A program made the translations under genes and the position numbers. This document shows positions 11,111-63,925 of a stretch of 64,000 bases of DNA, one piece after another. Each line of letters starts with the position of its first letter. Position 1 is the first letter of the stretch. Where the stretch lies: the IMG/VR virus record IMGVR_UViG_3300037755_000886, positions 19,820 through 83,819 of that record; one strand, written 5' to 3'. The notes beneath the pieces were generated by a model. The model saw only the letters and a list, made by a program, of their open reading frames with translations, was not told where the DNA came from and did not search any database. This stretch comes from a virus (taxonomy: Duplodnaviria > Caudoviricetes).

Positions 11111-11500
11111 TCAGGTTTTCGGAAGGGCGGAGGCCCGCTCCTGTGCCTGCACCGGCGGATGAAGTGCGGCAGCGAGGAGCGGGCCTCCGGGTGGCGGCCC
11201 GTCGAGGGGGGATGACGGGTCCGCCGCACGTCCGGCGGGAGAATGCCGGGCGGTCGTAGGAGGGTTGGATAGGACGTCGGCGAGGTCGGCGACGTCGAGG
11301 TGTTCGATGTCGACGTTCGCGGACCAGAGTTCGATGAGGTGGCGGCTGTAGCGGCGGCACCGCCCCTGGCCGAATGTCGACTTGTGCTGGATGCACGCGG
11401 GGACGCGGCCCTGGTCGACCATGCGCCGCCATGTCGCGGCCGTGACGCCGATCATGGCGCCGGCCTGTTCGGCGGTCAGCAGCACCGGCCGGACGGTCAT
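11111..11500 (-). CDS. AlpA/MerR-like HTH protein, candidate excisionase
   Basis: LLTAEQAGAMIGVTAATWRRMVDQGRVP; third gene of cro operon. Confidence 0.7.
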   Translation of the reverse strand: MTVRPVLLTAEQAGAMIGVTAATWRRMVDQGRVPACIQHKSTFGQGRCRRYSRHLIELWSANVDIEHLDVADLADVLSNPPTTARHSPAGRAADPSSPLDGPPPGGPLLAAALHPPVQAQERASALPKT

Positions 11501-15340: not shown

Positions 15341-15817
15341 TTAGGTGATGGTCGGGTCGTACCCGAGCGTCAGGTAGTAGCGGACCATCCCGCCGATCGG
15401 AGGGTCAGGTTCGGCGTTGAGCGCCCGGCTGACCGAGTGCGCCCGGGCGTTCTTCACGCCGCACATCCAGTACGCGTAGCCACCCGGCGACCGGGAGGCC
15501 AGTTCGTTGAGAACAGCGTCGAGTAGATCGCGGCCGAGGTGACCGCCTTGGCGATCGACGCGGACGCCGAGCACGATCACGTACCAGACCTCGCAGTTGA
15601 GGTCCTCGTCGTCGTCGTCCTGCTCGAAGGCGCAGGCGGCTACAATCTCGCCGTCATCGTCGACGACCCATGCGTCAGCGCCGGCATCACGAGCCCGAAG
15701 GAACAGCTCCGTCCGGATGAAGCGCTCGGCTTCGTGCGCGTAGGAGCCTGTCGTGGTGGCGCACTTGAACGCTCCGAGGGCTGGTAGGTCGGCTCCTTCG
15801 AGGGGCCGGATCTTCAC
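15341..15817 (-). CDS. GNAT-fold acetyltransferase (possible toxin)
   Basis: IRPL..ADL; LGVRVDRQGGHLGRDLLD motif A; N..A. Confidence 0.75.
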   Translation of the reverse strand: MKIRPLEGADLPALGAFKCATTTGSYAHEAERFIRTELFLRARDAGADAWVVDDDGEIVAACAFEQDDDDEDLNCEVWYVIVLGVRVDRQGGHLGRDLLDAVLNELASRSPGGYAYWMCGVKNARAHSVSRALNAEPDPPIGGMVRYYLTLGYDPTIT

Positions 15818-16053
15818 CGGGCGGTGATCGTCTTGTCCCTCTGGTGTCGTTCGGTGGGTGCCTGAGTGAACCGGCCGGTGCCAGGCGTGTACTTCGGCGC
15901 GGTGCCTGCCCGGATCCTGGCCTTGGCGTGGTCGGAGAGACCGTGGCGCGCCAGCATGATGTCGGGCCGCCCGGTCATGCGTCGGACCCTATGGCGAAGT
16001 CGCGCCCGTGCGCGGGCGAGGTGCATCGCCACCGCGTGCTGTTTCGTCCTCAT
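15814..16053 (-). CDS. Small basic hypothetical protein coupled to GNAT
   Basis: 4-nt overlap with GNAT start. Confidence 0.4.
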   Translation of the reverse strand: MRTKQHAVAMHLARARARLRHRVRRMTGRPDIMLARHGLSDHAKARIRAGTAPKYTPGTGRFTQAPTERHQRDKTITAR

Positions 16054-16273
16054 GGTCTCCGCCCTTCCCTCTTGCGTCCGACGTTACCGCCCAGCGCAAG
16101 CCTTGTCCTGCAACAAGCGTGCGTTACTATGGTAACGGTCGCCTGAGCGGCGTGTCCCTACCCCGTGCGCCATCCCCGGCCAGACCATGTGACATTCGGC
16201 TCATGAGCCGCCGACACGGAGGCGTGCCGCACGTCCCATGGACCGATACCCCTCCCCGGGTTACCGTCGAACC

Positions 16274-16549
16274 ATGGCGTGGGGGCAACAACGAACTTTC
16301 ATTCATGAGCTGCTTGTGACGGTGGGGGCCGCGACGGGCCTGCTCGTGATCGGCATCGCGGCGCTGTGGACCACCTTCCAGATCCGGCCGCCGTGGCCCG
16401 ACCCGGCATCGGCCCGCGGGACCGTCCCGGCCGGCACCAGGCCACCGGCGGCGCTAAGCGCCCGCCCCGCGCCCGGCACCCTCCCGCCGGGGAGCTGGCG
16501 CCCGGACCCGCGATCGGCGGACAGCGGGGGGACGCGCCCCGAGAGGTGA
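16274..16549 (+). CDS. Small membrane protein
   Basis: TM LLVTVGAATGLLVIGIAALW. Confidence 0.45.
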   Translation: MAWGQQRTFIHELLVTVGAATGLLVIGIAALWTTFQIRPPWPDPASARGTVPAGTRPPAALSARPAPGTLPPGSWRPDPRSADSGGTRPER

Positions 16550-16614
16550 ACGCTCCCCGGTGCGCTCGCCATCCTGGCCCGGGGGCCACCGCGACCGGGC
16601 CCGGGGGTCGACGG

Positions 16615-17235
16615 CTACTTCGGGAGCGTGGCGACGACGTCCTCGATCTTCTTGGCGTTGGCCGGCGTGACCTTGCCCGTGACCCGGACCAGCACCGGCC
16701 CGGCGAGATAGTCGTACTCGGTGCCGAGGATCGGCGAAGACGCCCGCATCGACGTCAGGTACTCGGAGCGCGTCTTGGCCAGTGCGGCGGTTGGGTGGAT
16801 CTCGACCGACCCGCCGCGCTCGACGGATCCCGCCGGGGCGCCCGTGTTACCGCCCGGTAGGTCGAAGGCAGCCCGGGCCTTGTACCCACCGGGCCGCCCG
16901 AGGAGTTCGTTCGGGTCGTCCTCCGGGGTGTTGATGACGACGTTGGTGGCGCCGGCCCCGGCGACCTTCGCGAGCACGGCATCGAGGCTCGGGGCGGGCA
17001 CCGTGGGGAGTGTGGTCGGCTTGGGCGGGTTGGCGATGTCGGCCTCGATGCTGGCGATGGTCTTGTCGGCGGTCTTCCTGCCTTCTTCGCCTGCGGTCGC
17101 GAAGCCGTAGATGATCCAGCCGATGGCACCGATGGCCACGGCGAGGACCGCCACGCGGACCCTGCTGACGGGCTTCTTCGGCGGAGGCTCGGACGGGTGT
17201 AGCGGAGGGTCTTCTGGGGGTGGAGGGTTCGTCAC
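16615..17235 (-). CDS. Membrane-anchored exported protein
   Basis: Pro-rich N-terminus, TM VAVLAVAIGAIGWIIYGF, extracytoplasmic domain DDPNELLGRPG. Confidence 0.75.
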   Translation of the reverse strand: MTNPPPPEDPPLHPSEPPPKKPVSRVRVAVLAVAIGAIGWIIYGFATAGEEGRKTADKTIASIEADIANPPKPTTLPTVPAPSLDAVLAKVAGAGATNVVINTPEDDPNELLGRPGGYKARAAFDLPGGNTGAPAGSVERGGSVEIHPTAALAKTRSEYLTSMRASSPILGTEYDYLAGPVLVRVTGKVTPANAKKIEDVVATLPK

Positions 17236-17285
17236 ACCGCTGACCGTACGCCCGCATGTCGCTGCGTGCGTCGGGGCCGTGCCGG

Positions 17286-18030
17286 TCAGATGAGCCCCAT
17301 CTCCTTCAGCACGTCCATGGCGGCCTCCGGGTCACGGCGGACGGCGGCCTTGAGCTGCAGCTGATACCACCGCTCCCGTGACGCGTTGAGCGGCACCTGC
17401 CAGCCTGATCGGTGCTCAACCAAGCGCTCGACGATGAGCATCTCGATCAGGTCCTCCAGGCAGGGGCGGTACCGACGCCCTCCGACGGGCAGATGCAGCT
17501 TGAAGAACTCGGCATTCGACGGCCGACGCCCGGCCATCCACCCGTGCAGAGCGTGGTTGCTGCCGTATGCGTGGAGGTGGGCCGGCGGGTAGCGGTAGTC
17601 ATCGCTGGGGGTGCGGTCGTAGTCATAGCGCAGGACCTGCTGGCTGCGATCGGAGGCGAGGTGCAGCCCGACCTCGGACGTTGCAACGGTGAGGTAGTGG
17701 CCTTCGGGGTCCATCTGGAGTCGGACGGACAGACTCAGCCAACAGCTAGGCGTGCCGCCGAGCGTGACCGGGATGAGCGACGGGATGACGCCGCTGCTGC
17801 GACTGACGCCGTAGCCGACGTACGCGGCCAGTTCTTCGGGGCGCAGGATGGCGCCGACCCGAAGGCCGGTGGTGATGGTGCCGTTGAGGAGATCGGCCAG
17901 CTCACCGGCGAAGCGGCGGGCCTCAACATCCAGGCGGTCGTTTGCCTGCGAGGGGCTTGAGGGCGAACCAGACGAGCCGCGCTTGTTCCGACTGGAACGC
18001 CTCTTCTCTCGCTTGTGCTTCGAGTTCCCC
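17286..18030 (-). CDS. Hypothetical protein, putative toxin/defence effector
   Basis: RYDYDR...YPPAHLH...LHLPVGGRRYRPCLEDLIE; start uncertain. Confidence 0.6.
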
Positions 18031-18132
18031 ATAGGTGAGGCCGATCTCGTCGAGCATCCGCTGGGCCACCTGGGCCATGTCGGCGTCGGTGACGACCTCG
18101 ACGGGCACCTGGGCAAGCTCCGTTCGAGTCAT
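17923..18132 (-). CDS. Small acidic partner protein (antitoxin-like)
   Basis: SD GGGAGAG; LTYGELEAQAREEAFQSEQARLVWF; overlaps downstream gene. Confidence 0.6.
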   Translation of the reverse strand: MTRTELAQVPVEVVTDADMAQVAQRMLDEIGLTYGELEAQAREEAFQSEQARLVWFALKPLAGKRPPGC

Positions 18133-18363
18133 GGTTCGCTCTCCCTTGGATGTCCGGGCACATGCAAAGTTGTCCACAGCACTAACAACCATCTTCGCGT
18201 AGATGATGCCGCGCTGCCATGCACAACGCGCGGTTGTAACAATGCTGATCGTCGGCTGAGACCGTCGGGACCTGAGGCTTTCCGCCATACGTGCAGTATG
18301 CGCGGGGGGTGCGACATCCCGGACGGCGAGCCCCGAAGCAACCCCGGGCCCAGGGTCGGCGGG

Positions 18364-18963
18364 CTACTGGATGGCCAGGAAGCGCTGGTCCTCGGTCTTG
18401 TCGAGCGTGAAGAACGGCTCGACCAGCATCACGAGCTGCGGGACGTCCGCCGGCGGCGCCTCGTAGATGAGCTGGCCGGTCAGGGTCCCGCCGGGCTGCA
18501 GCTGGGCCGTGATGTCGAACATCGTCGGCGTCGAGGCGAACGTCTGGGTGAGCTTGACGCCGGCGGGTGAGAGCAGCCCGACGTTGATGTTCGTCATCGC
18601 CGCGCCGGGCTTCGTGTCGCCGTTGTGGACCGTGATGGTCACGGCGACGAACTGGTTGCCGGGCGTCTGCGGCTTATTGAACTGGTTGGCCTTCGCCAGC
18701 GCGGCGTTGGCGTTCAGGTCGGCGGACACGACCTTGATCATCCAGCCCTGCGCCGCGGCGACCTCGGTGCCGATCGGCGCCGGGTTGTCCTTCGTGGAGC
18801 CGGGCTCGAGCGGGGCCTCGGTGGTCGGCGCTGCTGCAGCAGCGCCGTCGGTTGAAGCCGTGGTCTCGGTCGCCGGCGTCGTCCCGCAGGACGAGAGGGC
18901 GACCAGGGCCACGACGGCAAGAAGGCCGCCGAGAAAGCGGTTGGGGTGGGGAGGGTTCGTCAC
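18364..18963 (-). CDS. Lipoprotein, DUF4352-like
   Basis: Lipobox LSSC after hydrophobic signal; beta-rich domain FVAVTITVHNG...LQPGGTLTGQLIYEAP. Confidence 0.8.
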   Translation of the reverse strand: MTNPPHPNRFLGGLLAVVALVALSSCGTTPATETTASTDGAAAAAPTTEAPLEPGSTKDNPAPIGTEVAAAQGWMIKVVSADLNANAALAKANQFNKPQTPGNQFVAVTITVHNGDTKPGAAMTNINVGLLSPAGVKLTQTFASTPTMFDITAQLQPGGTLTGQLIYEAPPADVPQLVMLVEPFFTLDKTEDQRFLAIQ

Positions 18964-19071: not shown

Positions 19072-19160
19072 TCCGCGCGGAGGCGCGCGAACACGCGCGT
19101 TGCGCCTCGCCCTCGCGCGCTACCGTCTGCGTACGCGCGCTGGTGCGCGGTTGTGCTCTT

Positions 19161-19207
19161 GACTCTTAATCCGCAGGTTCTGGGTTCGAATCCCAGGGGG
19201 CGTACCA
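19161..19207 (+). other. attP core = 3' half of tRNA-Lys(CTT)
   Basis: CTCTTAA anticodon loop, CTGGG-TTCGAAT-CCCAG T-arm, GGGGCGT-A-CCA end; 5' half does not pair properly. Confidence 0.85.
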
Positions 19208-19266
19208 CCAGAAAGCGCAGGTCAAGGGCACTTTCTGAAGGTGGGAACGAACGAGGGACTAGGATC

Positions 19267-19288
19267 CATCCCACGTTCATCCCACATC
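19267..19288. repeat. Integrase arm-type sites, right
   Basis: CATCCCACGTTC at 19267-19278 followed by CATCCCACATC. Confidence 0.8.
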
Positions 19289-19303
19289 GGAAGGCGGGGC
19301 GCC

Positions 19304-20575
19304 ATGGCGGCGAGCAAGAAGAAGGGCCCGCGCGAGAAGGGCTCTGGCTCGAAACGCGAGACACGCAAGAACGTCTGGGAGCTGCGGGTCAACCTGGCGC
19401 CCGACCCCGTTACCGGCAAACGACGCCAGCTCTCCGACACGTTCCGGGGCGGCGAGAAGGCCGCCAACGTCGCCCTGGCCACGCTCATCTCCAAGACCCA
19501 GGCCGACCGGGCGCCGGCCACCGAGGCCACGTTCGGCTACCTGCTCACGACGTGGCTCGAGCGCTGCGAACGGAACCTCGCGGAGTCCACGGTCGTCGGA
19601 TACCGGCGCATCGTCGATGACCTGTGGATGCCGAAGCTCGGCCACGTCCCCCTCGCCAGGCTCGAGTCCCGCCACCTGCAGGCCGTCCTCGACTGGGACC
19701 ACCAGCGCAAGGTCACCCGCGGCAAGAAGGTCACGCCGATCAAGGCCGACACCGTGCTGCGCCACTGGGCCGCCGCCCGCAAGGCGTTGAACGACGCCGT
19801 GCAGATGGGGTGGATCCCGAGCTCGCCCGGCGACCGGGTGCTGCTGCCGTCGAAACGCAAGGGCCGCGACCGGGACCTGTCCAAGGACGAGCTCCTCAAG
19901 ATCCTGCTGTGCGCCGACGAGATGGACCCCGCGCTCGGGCTGATCCTGCGCGCCGCGAGCCTGTCGGGCGCCCGCCGCTCGGAGATGGCCGGCCTGCGCT
20001 GGCCCGACGTCGACTGGGAACGCAACCGGCTGAGCTTCGAGCAGGGCGTGGTCGTGCTGGCCAACCCGAAACGCAAGCCGGGCGACCCGAAGCGGCGGCC
20101 CCGCAAAGTGGTCATCAGCGACACGAAATCCCACCAGTCGCGCCCGGTCACGCTCGACCCCGACTCGATGGAACTGCTGCGTCTCCTGCGCCTGTACGTC
20201 GAGGCCGTCGCCGAGCAGGTCGGCACGGAGCTCCTCCGCGATGCGTTCGTGTTCTCCCGCGAGCCTGACGGCTCCAAGCCGCTGCGTCCCGACTGGCTGT
20301 CGACGGCGTTCAAGAAGGCGGCGAAGAAGGCGGGGTTCCCCGAGGCGCACCTGCATCAGCTGCGACACCTGTCGGCGTCGGTGATGCTGTCGCACGGGAT
20401 CCCGACGGCGGTCGCCTCGAAGCGGCTCGGTCACGCCGAGGAGACGACGACCATCCAGTTCTACTCCCGGGCGATCCAGTCGGACGAGGCCGCCGCCGAG
20501 GTGTTGGCCTCGGTGCTGTTCCCGCCGGCGAAGGCGCCGACCGTGCTCGAGGTGCCGGAAGCCGAAGCCAGCTGA
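19304..20575 (+). CDS. int: Tyrosine integrase
   Basis: Arm-binding N-terminus; catalytic SGARRSE (R), K, HQLRH, LGH, FY. Confidence 0.96.
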   Translation: MAASKKKGPREKGSGSKRETRKNVWELRVNLAPDPVTGKRRQLSDTFRGGEKAANVALATLISKTQADRAPATEATFGYLLTTWLERCERNLAESTVVGYRRIVDDLWMPKLGHVPLARLESRHLQAVLDWDHQRKVTRGKKVTPIKADTVLRHWAAARKALNDAVQMGWIPSSPGDRVLLPSKRKGRDRDLSKDELLKILLCADEMDPALGLILRAASLSGARRSEMAGLRWPDVDWERNRLSFEQGVVVLANPKRKPGDPKRRPRKVVISDTKSHQSRPVTLDPDSMELLRLLRLYVEAVAEQVGTELLRDAFVFSREPDGSKPLRPDWLSTAFKKAAKKAGFPEAHLHQLRHLSASVMLSHGIPTAVASKRLGHAEETTTIQFYSRAIQSDEAAAEVLASVLFPPAKAPTVLEVPEAEAS

Positions 20576-28771: not shown

Positions 28772-29119
28772 ATGGAGTCTTCACTCACAGCGGCAGGGTT
28801 GGCGCCGCCGACCACTAACCTCCCGGCCATGACCCCCAAGATCTATGAGGGCCCCAGCGCCTATGGACCGTCCAACGACAGCGCCCGCTCCGAGGCCGCT
28901 GAACGCGGCCTGACCCCGATCGGTGTCAACGGCATCGCCGCCTGGTTCGGCGTGGAACCCAACACCGTGAGCCGGTCATGGATCGCCGAGCGCGACGCCA
29001 AGAAGGATCCGGCGAAGAAGTTCCCGGAGCCGACGTGGCCCGAGCTCAACCTCTACGCCACCCGCGTCATCGAGGAGTGGGGCATCGCCACGGGTCGCCT
29101 GGCGGAAGGTGGGCGATGA
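28772..29119 (+). CDS. HTH DNA-binding protein (AlpA-like repressor candidate)
   Basis: IGVNGIAAWFGVEPNTVSRSW...FPEP...LY...IEEW. Confidence 0.7.
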   Translation: MESSLTAAGLAPPTTNLPAMTPKIYEGPSAYGPSNDSARSEAAERGLTPIGVNGIAAWFGVEPNTVSRSWIAERDAKKDPAKKFPEPTWPELNLYATRVIEEWGIATGRLAEGGR

Positions 29120-29640
29120 GTGCGGCCACGGACGCGGATGACTACACGGCCGTGTACCGCTGTTTCGACCGCGATGGACGTCTGGTTTACGTCGGCGCCT
29201 CATGTCTCGGCCTCGTCCGCTTCCACCAGCACCAGGCCGAGAAGGGATGGTGGCCCTGCGTCGCCCGGGTCGAGGTCGAGCACTACGCCAACCGTGCCGA
29301 GGCGCTGGCTGCGGAGCGGGCCGCCATCGAGGCCGAGGCTCCGCGCTTCAACATCCACCACGGCCTCAGGCGGAGCGTGACGGTACGTCGGCGGCAGGAA
29401 TGGGCTTCCGATCAGCGGGTCGGAATCCCGGACAGCATCGCCAAGGGACTGCATCTCCTTCGGCGTCGTCAGCACGCGATCGCCAGGGCCAGACGGGACA
29501 TCGTGCTCGCCGCCTGGAGCGAGGGCGTGTCGATCGAACGGATCGCCGATCTGGCCGGCCTGCACCGTGTCGACGTCGAGCGAGTGATCTGGTTCGCCAG
29601 GCACAGCAAGGACGGGATGGCCGCACTGCCCTACAGGTAA
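29116..29640 (+). CDS. GIY-YIG nuclease-like protein with C-terminal HTH
   Basis: AVYRCFD..GRLVYVGAS...RF.QH...AERAAI...P.FN; GVSIERIADLAGLHRVDVER. Confidence 0.8.
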   Translation: MSAATDADDYTAVYRCFDRDGRLVYVGASCLGLVRFHQHQAEKGWWPCVARVEVEHYANRAEALAAERAAIEAEAPRFNIHHGLRRSVTVRRRQEWASDQRVGIPDSIAKGLHLLRRRQHAIARARRDIVLAAWSEGVSIERIADLAGLHRVDVERVIWFARHSKDGMAALPYR

Positions 29641-29647
29641 GATTGCT

Positions 29648-29694
29648 CCCCAGGGTCTCTTGACACCCCAGACCATCTGGGGTACATTAGGTAC
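29648..29694 (+). promoter_or_regulatory. Rightward promoter TTGACA-17-TACATT with CCCCAG repeats; leaderless
   Basis: TTGACA 29660-65; spacer is palindrome CCCCAGA-N3-TCTGGGG; TACATT 29683-88; ATG 29695. Confidence 0.85.
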
Positions 29695-29949
29695 ATGAAG
29701 GAAACCACCACCGCCCCCCTCCCCGCCAGCCTCACCAACCAGCTCGAAGAGGACGAGATCACCCTCGCCGAGTGGGAAGCGATGACCGACGAGGAGCGCC
29801 AGTACCGGGGCCTCACGGTCGAGGAGCACGAGGACGTCTACGCCGACTACAGCGCTGAGGAAATGGCGGCCGTGGAGGCATGGCTCCTGGACCCCGGGCC
29901 CCGCTACCACGCGGCCGTCGCCCGGATCCGGGCCCACCCAGGCTGGTGA
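29695..29949 (+). CDS. Acidic hypothetical protein
   Basis: Leaderless start after consensus promoter. Confidence 0.65.
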   Translation: MKETTTAPLPASLTNQLEEDEITLAEWEAMTDEERQYRGLTVEEHEDVYADYSAEEMAAVEAWLLDPGPRYHAAVARIRAHPGW

Positions 29950-30121
29950 CCCCGGCGGGGCCCCGGCCCCGCCCACCCCCGGCGTGGGGTGTGTCCGGTT
30001 CGTCGGCGAGGCAAACCCCCAGCGCACACGCCTCGTGCGCAGGACAAGGGTGCCGGCGAGTCGGACAGACCCCATGACCGCTAGTTCACATGATCACAAG
30101 CTGACCGCTGGAGACCCCACC

Positions 30122-30406
30122 ATGAGCACCGAGACCATCGCCCCCGAGACGCTCACCCCTCGCCTGACCATCGTCCCCCCTGCCGCCGGACCCGCCTCGG
30201 TGCGCATCATCCCCGCCGAGGATGCCATCTGGTGGACGTCCGCTGACGGCATCCGGTGGGATGCGTACAGCGAGGACGGGGGCGCTACCTACGTGGTCTA
30301 CGCCCCCAACGGCGAGCACGGCTCCGAGGAGGAGGACTACGCCCTCGTGCCGGCGGCGGACCTGCTCGACGTCATCGCCCACGGCCTCGGCGACGCCCGC
30401 CGGTAG
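30122..30406 (+). CDS. Hypothetical protein
   Basis: GGAG RBS before ATG 30122. Confidence 0.55.
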   Translation: MSTETIAPETLTPRLTIVPPAAGPASVRIIPAEDAIWWTSADGIRWDAYSEDGGATYVVYAPNGEHGSEEEDYALVPAADLLDVIAHGLGDARR

Positions 30407-30755
30407 CCCCCGTTCGCCCGAAACCCCCGCCCGCCCGTGCGCAGGGGTTGAGGACAGCCCGGCCCCCGGCGTCAGCTGCGGGCCGGGCAACGACCGCCGA
30501 CAGGAGACCACCGTGCCCGAGATCACCGACCTCATTGCCCAGGCCATCAACCAGCGCGTCACCCGCGAGCATCTGCAGGATTGCCCCGCCGGCGAGCTCG
30601 ACATCGCGGCCCTGGCCGACGAGATCGAGTCCGCAATCAGCGACCGGATCGCCGACGACCCCAACGACTACCGGTACTTCCAGCCATGACCCAGCCGACA
30701 CCGTGGCGGTCAACCCACGGCAGCGGGCGCCCAGCGCACCGATCGGAGACCACCG

Positions 30756-31015
30756 TGAACCCCTTCGCCCACGAGATCGGCATCGGCCAGTACATCACCG
30801 TCGACGGCGTCGGGCCCGCGCTGGTCACCCGCAAGACGGTGTACGCCACCGCTGCCGTCGTCGACCTGTACGTCGCTGTCAGCGCGACCGGCGAGATCCC
30901 GGCGGGCATCGCCCTCGGTGAGCACCTCGCCGTCGCCATCGACGTCACCGGCGCCACAGTCGAACCCACGGCCTTCCCCGGCTGGGGGCCCGGCTGGCGC
31001 ATCACCACCCTGTAG
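30756..31015 (+). CDS. Hypothetical protein
   Basis: GGAG RBS + GTG (VNPFAHEIG...); start approximate. Confidence 0.45.
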
Positions 31016-31033
31016 CGGCCGCCGCCGGAGCGA

Positions 31034-31174
31034 GGTCGGTCAGATGGCGGCACCAGGACGAGCCTGGCCGCGTGGTGGCACGGAGCACACCGTCCCGGAC
31101 AGCCGGGCGGAGGTACCGGGTTCGAGTCCCGGTCCGGTCGCAAGGGCCGCTCTGGTGCCGCCATCTGACCGACC
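31034..31174. repeat. Perfect 23-bp inverted repeat enclosing a tRNA-like fold
   Basis: GGTCGGTCAGATGGCGGCACCAG (31034-31056) / CTGGTGCCGCCATCTGACCGACC (31152-31174). Confidence 0.92.
31066..31140 (+). ncRNA. tRNA-like element (degenerate)
   Basis: 75 nt; perfect T-arm CCGGG-TTCGAGT-CCCGG, U8, D-arm GTG..GG..CAC, acceptor 6/7 pairs; non-canonical anticodon loop, ends GCAA not CCA. Confidence 0.5.
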
Positions 31175-31188
31175 AGAGGAGACCCGCC

Positions 31189-31446
31189 ATGACCGTCGAG
31201 AACCTTCACCTTCGCCTCGCAGGCGCCGACAACCCCGAAGAGCTGGTCGAGGGCGTGCGCGACGCCATGCGTCGGGGCTACACCGACGACGAGATCGCCT
31301 CCATCGTCGGACCCGAGATGCTGGCCGTCGTCAAGGGCTTGATCGTCGAGGGTGGCTGCAACGGCCTGTGCCTGACCGGCTCCGACGTGGGAGTGCCGTC
31401 TGCCTGCATCGCCTACGCCCATCCCTCCTGCCCCGAGCACGGCTGA
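31189..31446 (+). CDS. Hypothetical protein
   Basis: GAGGAG RBS; C-terminal CNGLC...C..H..CPEHG. Confidence 0.6.
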   Translation: MTVENLHLRLAGADNPEELVEGVRDAMRRGYTDDEIASIVGPEMLAVVKGLIVEGGCNGLCLTGSDVGVPSACIAYAHPSCPEHG

Positions 31447-31456
31447 GGACTGACCG

Positions 31457-31720
31457 ATGCGAGAGATGATCGTCCGAGCCAACGGCGACAAGCCGTGGCG
31501 CTGCCCGGCCTGCCACCAGATCCCCGATGACGCCCGGGTGTGGCCGTCCACCCGCATCACCCGGCTCTACCGGTGCCCCGACTGCCGGGTCGTCTGGTGG
31601 GTGGGCTGGTCAGACTGGCCGCTGCGCCAGCGCCTCCCGACCCTCGCCCGCCGGCGTGCTGTCTGGCTCGCCCACACCGTTGCCCGGAGACTGCCGACCA
31701 GCTGGAGGACTTACCGATGA
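31457..31720 (+). CDS. Zn-ribbon hypothetical protein
   Basis: CPACH, CPDC. Confidence 0.5.
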   Translation: MREMIVRANGDKPWRCPACHQIPDDARVWPSTRITRLYRCPDCRVVWWVGWSDWPLRQRLPTLARRRAVWLAHTVARRLPTSWRTYR

Positions 31721-32004
31721 TCGAGCCCACCGACACCTCAACCTCGCCCCTCGTCACCGCGGCGCTCGCGGTGGGCCTCGCCGCCTACGTCGTTGCTGTG
31801 GTCTGGCTGCTCGCCGTCCTCATCCCGGCCATCCTCGTCCTCGTCGACGCCCATCTCCTCCCGGCCATCGTCGACGTCGCCGAGCAGCTCCCCGGCCAGC
31901 TGGCCGCGGCGCCGGTCTGGGTGCAACTCCTCGTCGGCGTGGTCGCCGTGACGGGCCTCGGCGCGCTCGTCTGGGGCGGCCGGGCGAGCGCACCCGTCGA
32001 CTGA
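31717..32004 (+). CDS. Membrane protein
   Basis: Two to three hydrophobic helices; ATGA overlap. Confidence 0.6.
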   Translation: MIEPTDTSTSPLVTAALAVGLAAYVVAVVWLLAVLIPAILVLVDAHLLPAIVDVAEQLPGQLAAAPVWVQLLVGVVAVTGLGALVWGGRASAPVD

Positions 32005-32013
32005 CCGCCGGGA

Positions 32014-32073
32014 GCGGGCCGCATCCCCATGCGACCCGCCCCCTCGACCCTCTAGCCCCCCGGCTGAGGGTCG
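32014..32073. terminator. Two hairpins at convergent transcription boundary
   Basis: GCGGGCCGCAT-CCCC-ATGCGACCCGC and CGACCCTC(T)AGCC-CCCC-GGCTGAGGGTCG. Confidence 0.6.
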
Positions 32074-32083
32074 GATCTTGCCG

Positions 32084-32455
32084 TCAGGCGGTCAGGCGTG
32101 ACCGCATCGGCTCGACGCTCAGCCCCTTGTGGGGCGTGTGCCGGTCGGGGCTGCAGGCAGCGAACGGGCCGAAGGTCGACTGCATGGCGGCAAGGTGCCG
32201 GTCGAGGTGGTCGAGCATCCAGGACGAGTAGGCGAGCGCGTCGCCGTGGGTCGTGACCTGCAGCCACGAGGCGTACAGGACCCGCATCCGGGTGACGACC
32301 TCGGGGTGGCGGTCCCACTGCTGGCACCACCGGAGCGTGTTGCTGGCCCGGCGCTCGAGCACGTCGACGAACCAGAGCTGCACCCAGGCGGCCAGCTCGT
32401 CCATGGTCGGCTCGGCGGTAGCGGGCGCGGATGGGTGGAGGTTGGTGACGGTCAC
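32084..32455 (-). CDS. DUF4913-like protein
   Basis: WV..WF..V.ER...WCQQWDRHPEVV.RM..LY.SW...W..DHLD.HL...GPFAAC...H. Confidence 0.75.
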   Translation of the reverse strand: MTVTNLHPSAPATAEPTMDELAAWVQLWFVDVLERRASNTLRWCQQWDRHPEVVTRMRVLYASWLQVTTHGDALAYSSWMLDHLDRHLAAMQSTFGPFAACSPDRHTPHKGLSVEPMRSRLTA

Positions 32456-33867
32456 GGCTTCCTCCTGAGCGTCTTGCCGACCACCTGGGCCGGAGCGGGC
32501 GCAGGCTTCGACGTCCGGGGCTGCGGGGCCTGGTTGGCGGCGGCGGCCAGGCCGGGCGTGGCCGCGATCGCGGCCTGCATCGCTCCCCGGTGGGGCTGAT
32601 GTGCGTACGACAGGCACGTGACCAACAGATTCGTGGTGCCCCGCGGTGCGCCGGTGGTGGAGTGGAGCGCAGCGGACGCGCTGGTCCGGGCATCGATGCC
32701 CCAACCGTCGGCGATCGCCTTCATCGAGTGGCCCTGCGAGACCAGCAAGGCCTGCGCCTTGGCCAGCGACTCGCCGGTGACACCCGCCGCCGCCAGACGC
32801 TCGGGCGACGCGACACCCTCACCCAACCTGGTCATCAGTTCCGCCTCGGCAGCCCCACCGAGCGGCTCGGGATCGGGGACCGCCTGGGGCTCATCGAAGA
32901 CCGGCGCGGCCGCCATCATGGCGTCCGTCGGGGCGGCGCCGGCCGCCCGATGGCTGTCGTAGTGGGCCATTGCCGCCGGGTGCGTCGCCCGCAGGTTTTC
33001 CTCGGTGCGCGCCATCGCCTCGGCCGCGTACGCATCGGTTTCAGTGTGCGGCAGCGCGGACGCCCACACCCGCACGTTCGCTACCGGGTCCGATTGGCCC
33101 AGAGGATCCGTGGTCGACTGCGAGGACGCCGGGCGGCCCGCGGCCGCGCCCAAACCCGGCACGGCCCGACCGGCGGTGGCCTGCGGCTCGGGCGTCGACG
33201 GGGCCAACGTGACGTCCAACTCGGCGGCACAGGACGGCGTCGACGTCGCGGTCAGCTCCGGGTCCCGGCCGAGGATCGCCGTCAACTCCCCGACCGTGAT
33301 CACGTCGGCGTCCTTGATGGCCATGTGGGTCCCGTAGTCGAGGACCCCGCACGCCTCGACGACGGAGACCCGGTAGATCTCCCAGTCGCCGGGCTCGGTG
33401 CCCTTGACGTACCCGGCCTCGCCGGGGAGGGGCAGGCGCTCGGCGACGAACGAGTGGCCCCGAGCGTTGCGCCAGGTGGCGGAGGTCTCGGTGAGGCTGA
33501 GGCTGTCGGGGGCGGGGCGGAGGTGGCTCGGTGCCGCCGTGTTGGTGTCAGTCCGCGTGCGCGGTGTCGTGGCATCGGGCGCAAGCTCGACCGCGGACGG
33601 CATGGCTGCCGCAGCCTCGACGATCCCGTCCCGCCACCTGCCCATCGCCTCAAAGTCCAGGCGGTCACCCACCCTGACATCGACGATCCGCCGCTGGAGC
33701 TTCGCGATCGTGTTCTGCCGGTAGTCGGTGGACACGTCGATCTGACTGGCGAGCTGACCGAGCTCGGCCTTGCGGAGCCCCAACCCGGCCACGTACGCAG
33801 CGGCCTCCTCGCGGGACTGCATCGCGTCGAGACGCCCACGCACCTCGACCGGATCGAAAGCGCTCAC
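32452..33867 (-). CDS. Multidomain hypothetical protein, plasmid/ICE-like
   Basis: Coupled to DUF4913; segment LRATHP.AMAHYD..R..G..P.DAM..AAP.F resembles actinobacterial plasmid proteins (recall only). Confidence 0.55.
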   Translation of the reverse strand: MSAFDPVEVRGRLDAMQSREEAAAYVAGLGLRKAELGQLASQIDVSTDYRQNTIAKLQRRIVDVRVGDRLDFEAMGRWRDGIVEAAAAMPSAVELAPDATTPRTRTDTNTAAPSHLRPAPDSLSLTETSATWRNARGHSFVAERLPLPGEAGYVKGTEPGDWEIYRVSVVEACGVLDYGTHMAIKDADVITVGELTAILGRDPELTATSTPSCAAELDVTLAPSTPEPQATAGRAVPGLGAAAGRPASSQSTTDPLGQSDPVANVRVWASALPHTETDAYAAEAMARTEENLRATHPAAMAHYDSHRAAGAAPTDAMMAAAPVFDEPQAVPDPEPLGGAAEAELMTRLGEGVASPERLAAAGVTGESLAKAQALLVSQGHSMKAIADGWGIDARTSASAALHSTTGAPRGTTNLLVTCLSYAHQPHRGAMQAAIAATPGLAAAANQAPQPRTSKPAPAPAQVVGKTLRRKP

Positions 33868-62280: not shown

Positions 62281-63717
62281 TCAACCGACCACCAGCACGT
62301 CCCACTCCGGCTCCGGCAGACCGTGATGGCCGGCGGCAAGCGTCACGACGACCAGCGGGGTGATGTCGACGCTCGAGCGGCGCCGGGACCATTTCCACGC
62401 GTCGCCGACTGGTTGTTTCGCCGCGCCCCGCACCGCCACGTCGAGCACGGGCTGGCCACGGTGATGGATCCGATCGTCGACAACCGCGTCGAACAGCTGG
62501 CCGCACGCCCTCGTCTGATCCTCACCCGACACCTCATCGACCGGCACCCCGGCGGCCTCCAGGTCCGGGACCAGCGACGCCGCCGGCGAACCCTTCGCCA
62601 CCGACAGCTCGCCGCCCCAGCGCGCCAGCAGCGCCTGCGCCCGGGCCACGACCCACGCGGTGCCCGGCCGTGAGTCCACAACCTCGACCGCGACCCGATC
62701 CGCGTCCAACGTCGAGCGGCCGGCAGCGCCGAACGCCGCCCACGCTCGATCCTCCGACACGTCCAGAGCGAACGACGGCGCGCCCTCGATGCCAACGTCC
62801 GGGGCCAGACACTCCGCCCACGCCTCCGGAAAGACCTGGGCGGCCTTCTCGTCCTCTTCGTCGTCGAACATCCCGAGGCGCTCCCGCTCAAAGCCCCCAT
62901 CGGCGTCCAGTTCCTCGCGCTCCTTCTCGATGTACTCGATCGAGATCCGGTGCGGACATCCCGGGTTCGCCCGGCGCCACACCTCGTGGTCAGTGGCATC
63001 CTCACCCACGTCAGCGCAGAACTCGGTGTACGCGAGCGACAGCGCTTGGCCCTCCCGGGCCTGCGCCCGGCCCCGCTTGACCAGCCGGCGCAGCACCCCC
63101 GACTCTTCCTTGTCGAGAGGCGCCGACGACGTGTACCAGAGCTGCGGATTCGGACGGGCCGCCATTGTCGGCAGCAACGCCGACATTCCCGTCGACGACA
63201 GGTTGTACGCCTCGTCAAGGATCACGCAGTCCCCGGTGAAACCCCGGCCGCTGCCCGTCGAGCGAGCCACGAACCGCAGGCGCTGCCCCGTCCGCAGCTC
63301 GATGCCCTCTTCGCCGTGCGACGTCCTGACCCGCATCACGAGGCGGTCCAGGTCCGGGGTCGACTGGATCAGGAACAGGATCCGCCGGAAGGCCTCTGCC
63401 GCGGTCTTGAACTCGTGGGCCGAGTGGAGAATCAGCTGCTCATCGAACAGGAACAGGCCCGCCAGTTCCCGGGCCTCGAGCACCGAGCCCTTGCCGTTCT
63501 GGCGGGGCACGATCAGCGCCGACGAGAACGCCGCCCACTGCCCGGTCTCCGTCTCCCCGAGCGCGTCGTCGAGAAACAGTTCCTGCCACGGGTCAAGGAT
63601 CAGGCCCGCGCTGGCCGCTAACTCGATCGCTTCCTGCCCGGCCGACGACGCCCTCGCCGGTCGGACCCGGTACCTGGGCAGCTGAGCGTCGAGCAGTCCG
63701 CCGGCGGGCGAGGTCAT
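62281..63717 (-). CDS. terL: Terminase large subunit
   Basis: LDPWQ, Walker A VPRQNGKG, Walker B VILDEA, YTSSA, WRRANP, nuclease DITP. Confidence 0.95.
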   Translation of the reverse strand: MTSPAGGLLDAQLPRYRVRPARASSAGQEAIELAASAGLILDPWQELFLDDALGETETGQWAAFSSALIVPRQNGKGSVLEARELAGLFLFDEQLILHSAHEFKTAAEAFRRILFLIQSTPDLDRLVMRVRTSHGEEGIELRTGQRLRFVARSTGSGRGFTGDCVILDEAYNLSSTGMSALLPTMAARPNPQLWYTSSAPLDKEESGVLRRLVKRGRAQAREGQALSLAYTEFCADVGEDATDHEVWRRANPGCPHRISIEYIEKEREELDADGGFERERLGMFDDEEDEKAAQVFPEAWAECLAPDVGIEGAPSFALDVSEDRAWAAFGAAGRSTLDADRVAVEVVDSRPGTAWVVARAQALLARWGGELSVAKGSPAASLVPDLEAAGVPVDEVSGEDQTRACGQLFDAVVDDRIHHRGQPVLDVAVRGAAKQPVGDAWKWSRRRSSVDITPLVVVTLAAGHHGLPEPEWDVLVVG

Positions 63718-63925
63718 CACGGGCCGACACCTCCGGCTCCTTGATCGCATCCAGCTGCGCCAGCACGTCCGTCAACTGCTTCGCCAACGGCGCGACGTGG
63801 AACCCCTCGGTCTCCTCAATGCTCGCCACCAAGCGGTCCCGCAGTGCCACAAGCGCCCGGCGGCGATCCCCGGAGGCGACCTCGGTAGCGAACTTCGTCC
63901 GGGACGCCCGTTTCGCAGGACACAC
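63593..63925 (-). CDS. Terminase small subunit (putative)
   Basis: GDRRRALVALRDRLV...LAKQL..VL..LDA...DDLARRR; directly upstream of terL. Confidence 0.65.
   Translation of the reverse strand: MCPAKRASRTKFATEVASGDRRRALVALRDRLVASIEETEGFHVAPLAKQLTDVLAQLDAIKEPEVSARDDLARRRTARRSAAQVPGPTGEGVVGRAGSDRVSGQRGPDP

Follow-up and report, generated by a model that had tools for sequence, protein, structure and literature searches.

A tRNA-derived body without an anticodon inside a perfect 23-bp helix: a candidate RNA processing module between two genes of an actinobacterial phage

Long RNA duplexes, such as the leader-trailer stems of ribosomal RNA (rRNA) and the intercistronic sites of T7 early messenger RNA (mRNA), are cut by ribonuclease III (RNase III), which releases the parts. 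At a T7 site the duplex is one hairpin, about 50-60 nt long and interrupted by an internal loop, and the rRNA stems enclose rRNA; we know of no RNase III helix that encloses a transfer RNA (tRNA) look-alike lacking an anticodon. The tRNA-like vertebrate nuclear RNA mascRNA is itself produced by processing with RNase P and RNase Z. In plant mitochondria, degenerate cloverleaves with an intact T-arm, the t-elements, direct RNase P and RNase Z to create mRNA ends, to which non-encoded C and A residues are added, and they have been sought with the motif GGTTCRANYCC (PMC1920247). Among actinobacteria, the YrlA RNA of Mycobacterium smegmatis has a tRNA-like module with an acceptor of 7 bp, which RNase P cleaves and to which CCA is added (PMC4201824). 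Here we describe a 141-nt element at 31034-31174 of a 64-kb stretch of DNA, hereafter the window, from a virus of the Caudoviricetes (IMG/VR record IMGVR_UViG_3300037755_000886). It consists of a tRNA-derived, anticodon-less body enclosed by a perfect 23-bp inverted repeat (IR), which we refer to as the clamp. The element is real and not a product of chance, and by analogy with the systems above its most likely role would be that of an RNA cutting signal.

The arms of the clamp are complementary at 23/23 positions, as a preliminary description of the window from its letters alone had noted, and the pairing extends inward imperfectly to 35 nt at 86%. The clamp is the longest IR in the 64 kb and the sole perfect IR of 20 bp or more there. 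At up to 3 mismatches no further copy of an arm is found in the window, with 0 expected in shuffles. Folded as RNA, the 141 nt reach -98.7 kcal/mol (z = -7.3 versus shuffles). The second cleanest hairpin of the window is a perfect 15-bp IR with a 32-nt spacer at 11128-11189. A duplex of 23 bp is within the length range accepted by bacterial RNase III, and the 23 uninterrupted pairs agree with the duplex RNA of about 20 bp or more that characterizes its substrates. Release of the interior by RNase III at this duplex, which the preliminary description had raised, is chemically plausible on such a model.

The anatomy of the body was for the most part read correctly at the outset (Table 1): the acceptor with 6/7 pairs, the U8, the D-arm with GG and the perfect T-arm all stand, as does a 3′ end other than CCA. 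The acceptor, the D-arm with G18 and G19 and the consensus T-loop are those of a canonical tRNA, with a D-stem of only 3 bp. The T-arm is the sole exact GGTTCGAGTCC in the window and includes the motif GGTTCRANYCC at 31119-31129, set in a non-canonical cloverleaf within an intercistronic gap of a + strand operon. A canonical anticodon arm (5-bp stem, 7-nt loop, U33 and an anticodon at 34-36) is not present at 31090-31110. What had been taken for a 7-nt anticodon loop (CCGGACA) belongs to an 8-bp stem with a bulged U and an ACAG tetraloop, with pair probabilities >0.9; the alternative fold of this segment is only a 5-bp stem with an 11-nt loop. Since the arm is a closed tetraloop hairpin with no anticodon loop to cut, the suggestion that the RNA is a decoy for anticodon nucleases does not hold.

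Table 1. Positions in the window of the parts of the element and of the surrounding features.
Feature	Position	Strand	Remarks
Tyrosine integrase gene	19241-20575		
Promoter-like site	29660-29688	+	TTGACA-17-TACATT; presumed origin of the element-carrying transcript
Upstream gene	30755-31015	+	86 aa; ORFan (P0001/P0010); always accompanies the element
Clamp, left arm	31034-31056	+	perfect 23-bp IR; 5′ strand of the clamp helix
'Leader' spacer	31057-31065	+	9 nt, clamp to tRNA-like body; U precedes position 1
tRNA-derived body	31066-31140	+	variable loop 31111-31115; nearest real tRNA is tRNA-Asp(GTC)
Acceptor stem	31066-31072 / 31133-31139	+	6/7 pairs, two of them G-U
U8	31073	+	
D-arm	31075-31088	+	3-bp stem, GG in loop
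Closed hairpin replacing the anticodon arm	31090-31110	+	8 bp, one bulged U, ACAG tetraloop; pair probabilities 0.91-0.97
T-arm	31116-31132	+	perfect; 5-bp stem, 7-nt T-loop matching the tRNA consensus exactly; pair probabilities 0.95
Discriminator	31140	+	G, followed by CAA
'Trailer' spacer	31141-31151	+	11 nt, discriminator to right arm; begins CAA, not CCA
Clamp, right arm	31152-31174	+	perfect 23-bp IR; 3′ strand of the clamp helix
Shine-Dalgarno sequence of the downstream gene	31176-31181	+	GAGGAG, 2 nt past the clamp; ATG at 31189
Downstream gene	31189-31446	+	85 aa; Cys-rich C-terminus (P0002); starts MTVENL; relatives elsewhere lack the element
DUF4913 gene	32084-32704	leftward	part of a putative TraB-type transfer module
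Large terminase gene	62281-63750		

The element is not a functional tRNA gene. ARAGORN made no call here at default settings and, with lowered thresholds, returned only a poor, mismatch-ridden 86-nt 'tRNA-Val'. A tRNA covariance score had been set beforehand as a test, and it came out at background: whether it was run on 171 nt, 1.2 kb or the complete record, the Rfam tRNA model RF00005 (gathering score 29 bits) gave nothing at E ≤ 10. No Rfam family reached its own gathering score anywhere in the window. The tRNA detectors fail because the middle arm is a closed 8-bp hairpin and not an anticodon arm. ARAGORN at default settings did call a 72-nt class I tRNA once the hairpin at 31090-31110, and nothing else, had been exchanged in silico for a canonical tRNA-Asp anticodon arm; the call used exactly the acceptor, D-arm and T-arm of Table 1. 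The control placed the graft in random contexts of the window, and two of the 3000 were called, both aberrant and about 100 nt long. The body therefore resembles a tRNA beyond chance.

We compared the body with 72 distinct actinobacterial tRNAs, comprising a full Streptomyces set and a few others. The best of them was Pseudonocardia tRNA-Asp(GTC), with 55/74 positions in agreement and a score of 70 versus a mean of 48.5 (standard deviation 6.7). The two have in common the 5′ start, the G2-U71 wobble, the variable loop, the T-arm and the 3′ end with its discriminator G. The U at -1 and the discriminator G likewise match tRNA-Asp, and blastn of the 3′ part of the element against phages lands on tRNA-Asp and tRNA-Glu genes. 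Judged by its sequence, the element is tRNA-derived and most like tRNA-Asp, with the decoding end closed off.

According to codon-position GC profiles, small + strand genes run from about 28800 to 32004, converging on the leftward DUF4913 gene, and the gap 31016-31188 (174 nt) has no coding bias. The element fills this non-coding gap in the same orientation as the + strand genes on either side. Relatives of the downstream gene confirm its start codon, and the ribosome-binding site (RBS) GAGGAG follows the clamp immediately, as had been noted. The promoter-like site of Table 1 is the only one on the + strand within 29500-32300. Because it lies in sense orientation and has neither a promoter nor a terminator of its own, the element should be present in the operon RNA.

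The record contains a single copy of the element. Two independent JGI contigs, about 98% identical to the window, also carry it, with no differences over the 44 and 119 nt covered, each contig ending within the element; since it recurs in two independent contigs, an assembly artefact is excluded. In a Logan contig the genes follow in identical order and a gap of 173 nt takes the corresponding position, a likeness of gene order and gap length only. In one near-identical contig (L015), 121 nt at 1149-1269 substitute for window 29981-30926 (about 946 nt); this removes the 5′ part of the ORFan gene together with two to three small genes but leaves the element in place, a replacement that shows lively mosaicism within the operon. 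In JGI contig Ga0395784_0410634 (L014:1111-1155), 45 extra and AT-richer nt lie exactly at the outer edge of the left arm and separate it from the trailer of the upstream gene, in a phage otherwise 97.75% identical. No promoter-like site was found in these 45 nt; the contig ends 44 nt past them, and a mis-join is possible.

Searches beyond these near-identical genomes place the element in one narrow phage lineage. Outside its own lineage, neither 5.8 billion clustered proteins nor 1.84 billion representatives include a homologue of the product of the upstream gene, and IMG/VR contains no relative of a neighbouring 471-aa protein. Megablast and blastn of the region found no match among 50,697 phage records, and the only match that blastn returned for the element among plasmids was a chance one, 49 nt of GC-rich sequence in a Streptomyces plasmid, with no T-arm there. 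Exact scans covered IMG/VR for a 28-mer of T-arm plus acceptor and for a 17-mer of the arm, and the JGI metagenomes for a 21-mer of the arm; a D-to-T pattern was scanned through IMG/VR, 185,579 species genomes (one each) and the JGI metagenomes. These collection scans bear on diverged copies and not on near-identical records. They returned only single-arm chance matches, genuine tRNAs, unrelated tRNA-derived repeats and coding sequence, and no match had a flanking IR of 11 bp or more. A T-arm match in a Streptomyces chromosome was rejected as coding sequence. The D-to-T scan also brought up dozens of loci in JGI contigs (L027-L105; e.g., Ga0049105, Ga0066190 and Ga0209255) that carry a diverged tRNA-shaped repeat with a 59-nt pattern span, and behind every repeat comes a conserved tail of about 20 nt; these repeats apparently form a dispersed family, derived from a tRNA of some organism and unrelated to the element.

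What we infer for the element, namely its transcription, its cleavage and any effect on expression, takes the following form. We tentatively favor, at rather less than even confidence and by analogy with t-elements, a tRNA-derived module in a leader-trailer helix, which RNase III and/or the pair of RNase P and RNase Z would excise from the operon transcript. The element would be carried in sense within a polycistronic early-type operon mRNA, where host RNase III would cut the long perfect duplex. In addition or instead, RNase P and RNase Z (or 3′ trimming and CCA addition) would cut at the ends of the tRNA-like body, with the acceptor/T-arm stack, the 7-bp acceptor, the U at -1 and the discriminator G as putative handles for RNase P, RNase Z and the CCA-adding enzyme. 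Cleavage would leave the upstream message (30755-31015) and the downstream one (31189 onward) as separate RNAs, and a tRNA-shaped by-product of about 75 nt, compact and stable, would be set free. Consistent with processing, the best Rfam match of the element is mascRNA-menRNA (RF01684; 25.1 bits over 31066-31139, E 0.0026 for the element alone, short of the gathering score of 42.5), the T-arm fits the t-element motif and the duplex is unique in the window.

Several observations weigh against processing of this kind. The clamp with a full cloverleaf reaches -79.2 kcal/mol versus -98.7 for the minimum free energy fold, so that the cloverleaf is thermodynamically disfavored; the pair probability of the acceptor is only about 0.19, and its first pairs face competition from the inner imperfect portion of the 35-nt repeat. 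Other features look like decay: a C-C mismatch in the acceptor, the 3-bp D-stem, a CCA that is not encoded and an A at position 48, which makes the 15-48 tertiary pair doubtful. The preliminary description had named a lack of structural conservation in related phages as a refutation, and we found no counterpart. Relatives of the downstream protein (85%, 68% and 62% identical, plus two partial ones) are all without the element, and in the 85%, 68% and 62% relatives the preceding gene abuts or overlaps the downstream gene. We also ran a covariance model of the clamp and cloverleaf on 30 phage records whose terminase is related (at most 57% identity), and its only hit was a genuine tRNA-Glu. No diverged homologue that would allow covariation to be assessed was found, and the 100% identity of the element among its carriers is only weakly unexpected at a background of about 98%. 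Finally, the idea of a leader that masks the downstream RBS finds no backing in the folding predictions: the Shine-Dalgarno sequence lies outside the helix, and its predicted accessibility is little changed with or without the element.

Some of these points could also describe a decaying relic: a phage tRNA-Asp gene with a flanking helix that lost its anticodon loop, has no function and persists in a young lineage. We regard this as possible, if on the unlikely side. The restriction to genomes about 98% identical and the relatives without the element speak for it, as do the lack of a genuine tRNA gene in the record, the background score of the Rfam tRNA model, the acceptor mismatch, the short D-stem and the doubtful 15-48 pair. 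However, neither the T-arm nor the 23-bp helix shows a flaw, and the hairpin in place of the anticodon arm has a clean 8-bp stem, unlike random damage. A 23-bp leader-trailer duplex is also unexpected for a tRNA gene unless the duplex has a use.

The preliminary description had also considered a small IR-bounded mobile unit, and the part of this idea that stands is that both ends of the element lie at mosaic junctions: homology at the DNA level to the nearest relative of the downstream gene begins at 31177, 3 nt past the right arm, and the 45 extra nt of the near-identical contig sit at the outer edge of the left arm. Terminal inverted repeats, as in a miniature inverted-repeat transposable element (MITE), are present, and a weak GIY-YIG-like gene (29116-29640; 17.5 bits, below the Pfam cut-off) lies 1.4 kb upstream. 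A mobile or recombination-delivered cassette, MITE-like or homing cargo with the tRNA-like core as payload, nevertheless appears fairly unlikely. There is one copy in the record, no flanking direct repeat of 3 bp or more that would mark a target-site duplication, and no adjacent transposase. Arm scans (IMG/VR and JGI metagenomes), core-pattern scans (the same collections and the 185,579 species genomes) and similarity searches of phage and plasmid records likewise gave no copy. Nor are the flanks the halves of an outer interrupted tRNA. On one side a gene ends, and on the other lies the ribosome-binding site of the gene that follows; joined without the element the flanks yield no tRNA (ARAGORN at default and with -ps), and the + strand flanks hold no T-loop motif. 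A cassette origin and present use as a processing signal are compatible and not mutually exclusive.

Large GC-rich intercistronic hairpins are known to protect upstream mRNA, and the element might be an ordinary hairpin of this sort, a 3′ stabilizer or a terminator without a U-tract for the ORFan at 30755-31015, with gene and hairpin traveling together as a 'moron' and the tRNA interior as incidental ancestry. The fold is very stable, and the element invariably accompanies the ORFan, or at least the 3′ end of this gene, but is never found beside relatives of the downstream gene. We nonetheless hold this explanation to be unlikely, as a stabilizer or terminator has no need of a 95-nt structured interior and three more + strand genes follow downstream without a promoter-like site. 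A usual intrinsic terminator was rejected: the helix is followed by AGAGGAG in place of a T-run, and 29500-32300 contains no terminator-like site.

A trans-acting tRNA mimic could be a Y-RNA-like partner of host Ro60/Rsr, or a decoy or titrator for readers of the acceptor and T-arm (tRNA-3′-end toxins, the CCA-adding enzyme or RNase P), and we consider it very unlikely. A dedicated non-decoding mimic, excised from the early operon RNA via its own helix and host tRNA-end enzymes and acting in trans as an acceptor/T-arm decoy or sponge, or as a Ro60-independent or host-Rsr-binding Y-RNA analogue, is decidedly unlikely. The acceptor/T-arm half is the best preserved, and a terminal helix from the 5′ and 3′ ends with a tRNA-like module in 141 nt recalls the bacterial Y RNAs, which are also present in mycobacteriophages (PMC4201824). 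Y RNAs of the YrlA type have about 140-150 nt, a helix of the 5′ and 3′ ends and a tRNA-like domain with T- and D-arms, but the order of this domain is permuted (V, T, acceptor-like hairpin, D) and the long helix is at the position of the anticodon stem (PMC4201824). The element keeps the normal tRNA order of acceptor, D, hairpin, V, T and acceptor. YrlA also differs in having a GNCGAA-type motif, in the 5′ strand of its terminal helix, and a Ro60 gene within 4 kb on the same strand. PF05731 (Ro60/TROVE) has no match in the 83.8-kb record, and a regular-expression search found no GNCGAA(N)G motif, the Ro-binding type, in 31016-31189. Among the Rfam Y RNA models there was no YrlA match, and Deinococcus_Y_RNA gave 12.4 bits versus a gathering score of 80, a match that was lost on shifting the search window. 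On these four grounds a bacterial Y RNA was rejected. No defense or counter-defense context was identified around the element that would suit a mimic.

A site acting at the DNA level, either paired operators or a folded single-strand origin or hairpin for replication or transfer of the adjoining conjugation-like module, is highly improbable: the two identical 23-bp sites about 118 bp apart and the start of a TraB/DUF4913-type module 900 bp downstream would suit it, but no third copy or half-site occurs elsewhere, the arm itself is not palindromic and the clear tRNA ancestry of the interior, in the sense orientation of the operon, is left unexplained.

The window is the final 64 kb of the 83.8-kb record, which has an estimated completeness of 90%, and its G+C content is 69.6%. 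The source phage is temperate, high-GC and actinobacterial. Both genes that follow the element, 31189-31446 and 31457-31720, encode small Cys-rich proteins resembling zinc ribbons. The C-terminal Cys motif of the first is common to a protein of a distant phage (L004) and to PHROG 37860 (function unknown). A distant phage with this motif (IMGVR_UViG_3300044728_000147, 15499-18587) has a transfer-messenger RNA (tmRNA) and nine tRNA genes in 3 kb. Upstream, third-position GC supports a 174-aa frame at 29116-29640 (+), with the overlapping open reading frame 29202-29663 in the wrong frame. Its product, at 17.5 bits versus a Pfam cut-off of 22.6 for GIY-YIG, is possibly a free-standing nuclease.

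The single ARAGORN call in the record, a 'tRNA-Lys(CTT)' at 19133-19207, is only the 3′ half of a tRNA-Lys, with a 5′ part that is not tRNA-like. Similarity of this region to 118/401 Actinomycetes genomes begins at about 19161, and the Rfam tRNA model gave 14.5 bits on 19153-19204, under its cut-off. Lying directly ahead of the tyrosine integrase gene, this tRNA-Lys 3′ half is most likely the attP core, and the record is thus without a genuine tRNA gene. No exact match to the core was found in the 401 genomes, the best being 96% over 45 nt; the set includes five unpublished genomes, on which no claim depends.

Non-decoding tRNA look-alikes such as t-elements, mascRNA and Y RNAs redirect the tRNA-processing machinery to other purposes. 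If the reading as a processing module is right, actinobacterial phages would follow this principle as well, with a tRNA module on a helix of the RNase III type punctuating early mRNA, and the element would be a compact natural processing cassette. Should the released RNA act in trans, it would bear on tRNA-centered phage defense and counter-defense, and a true trans mimic would be an undescribed class of phage small RNA. At present the element appears as a well-defined candidate, a single sequence in one narrow lineage, rather than a discovery.

Set beside the known systems, the element recalls RNA C and RNA D of phage T4 by description only: these too are phage-encoded, non-decoding small RNAs (role unknown; PMC3014915), but they sit in a tRNA cluster, whereas the element stands alone in an operon of protein genes. 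With the RNase III helices it has in common a long duplex that flanks a structured RNA and lies between cistrons, cleavage being a prediction here. The likeness to mascRNA covers an acceptor stem, a shortened non-decoding middle arm and a T-arm inside a longer transcript, and the short D-like hairpin has the same 10-nt sequence as the mascRNA family consensus. The middle arm has 34 nt in the element versus 15 in mascRNA, which has no clamp helix, and common descent is not plausible because mascRNA is a vertebrate nuclear family. The t-elements have, like the element, a degenerate cloverleaf and a perfect T-arm fitting GGTTCRANYCC, and they likewise lie within protein-coding transcripts beside gene ends, where RNase P and RNase Z cleavage makes mRNA ends, a step that is only proposed for the phage. 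They differ in being organellar, in lacking an enclosing long duplex and in having ends that were mapped experimentally. The element fits no described RNA family and belongs with the non-decoding, tRNA-derived structures embedded in transcripts; what it adds to them, and what is unusual, is its perfect leader-trailer helix.

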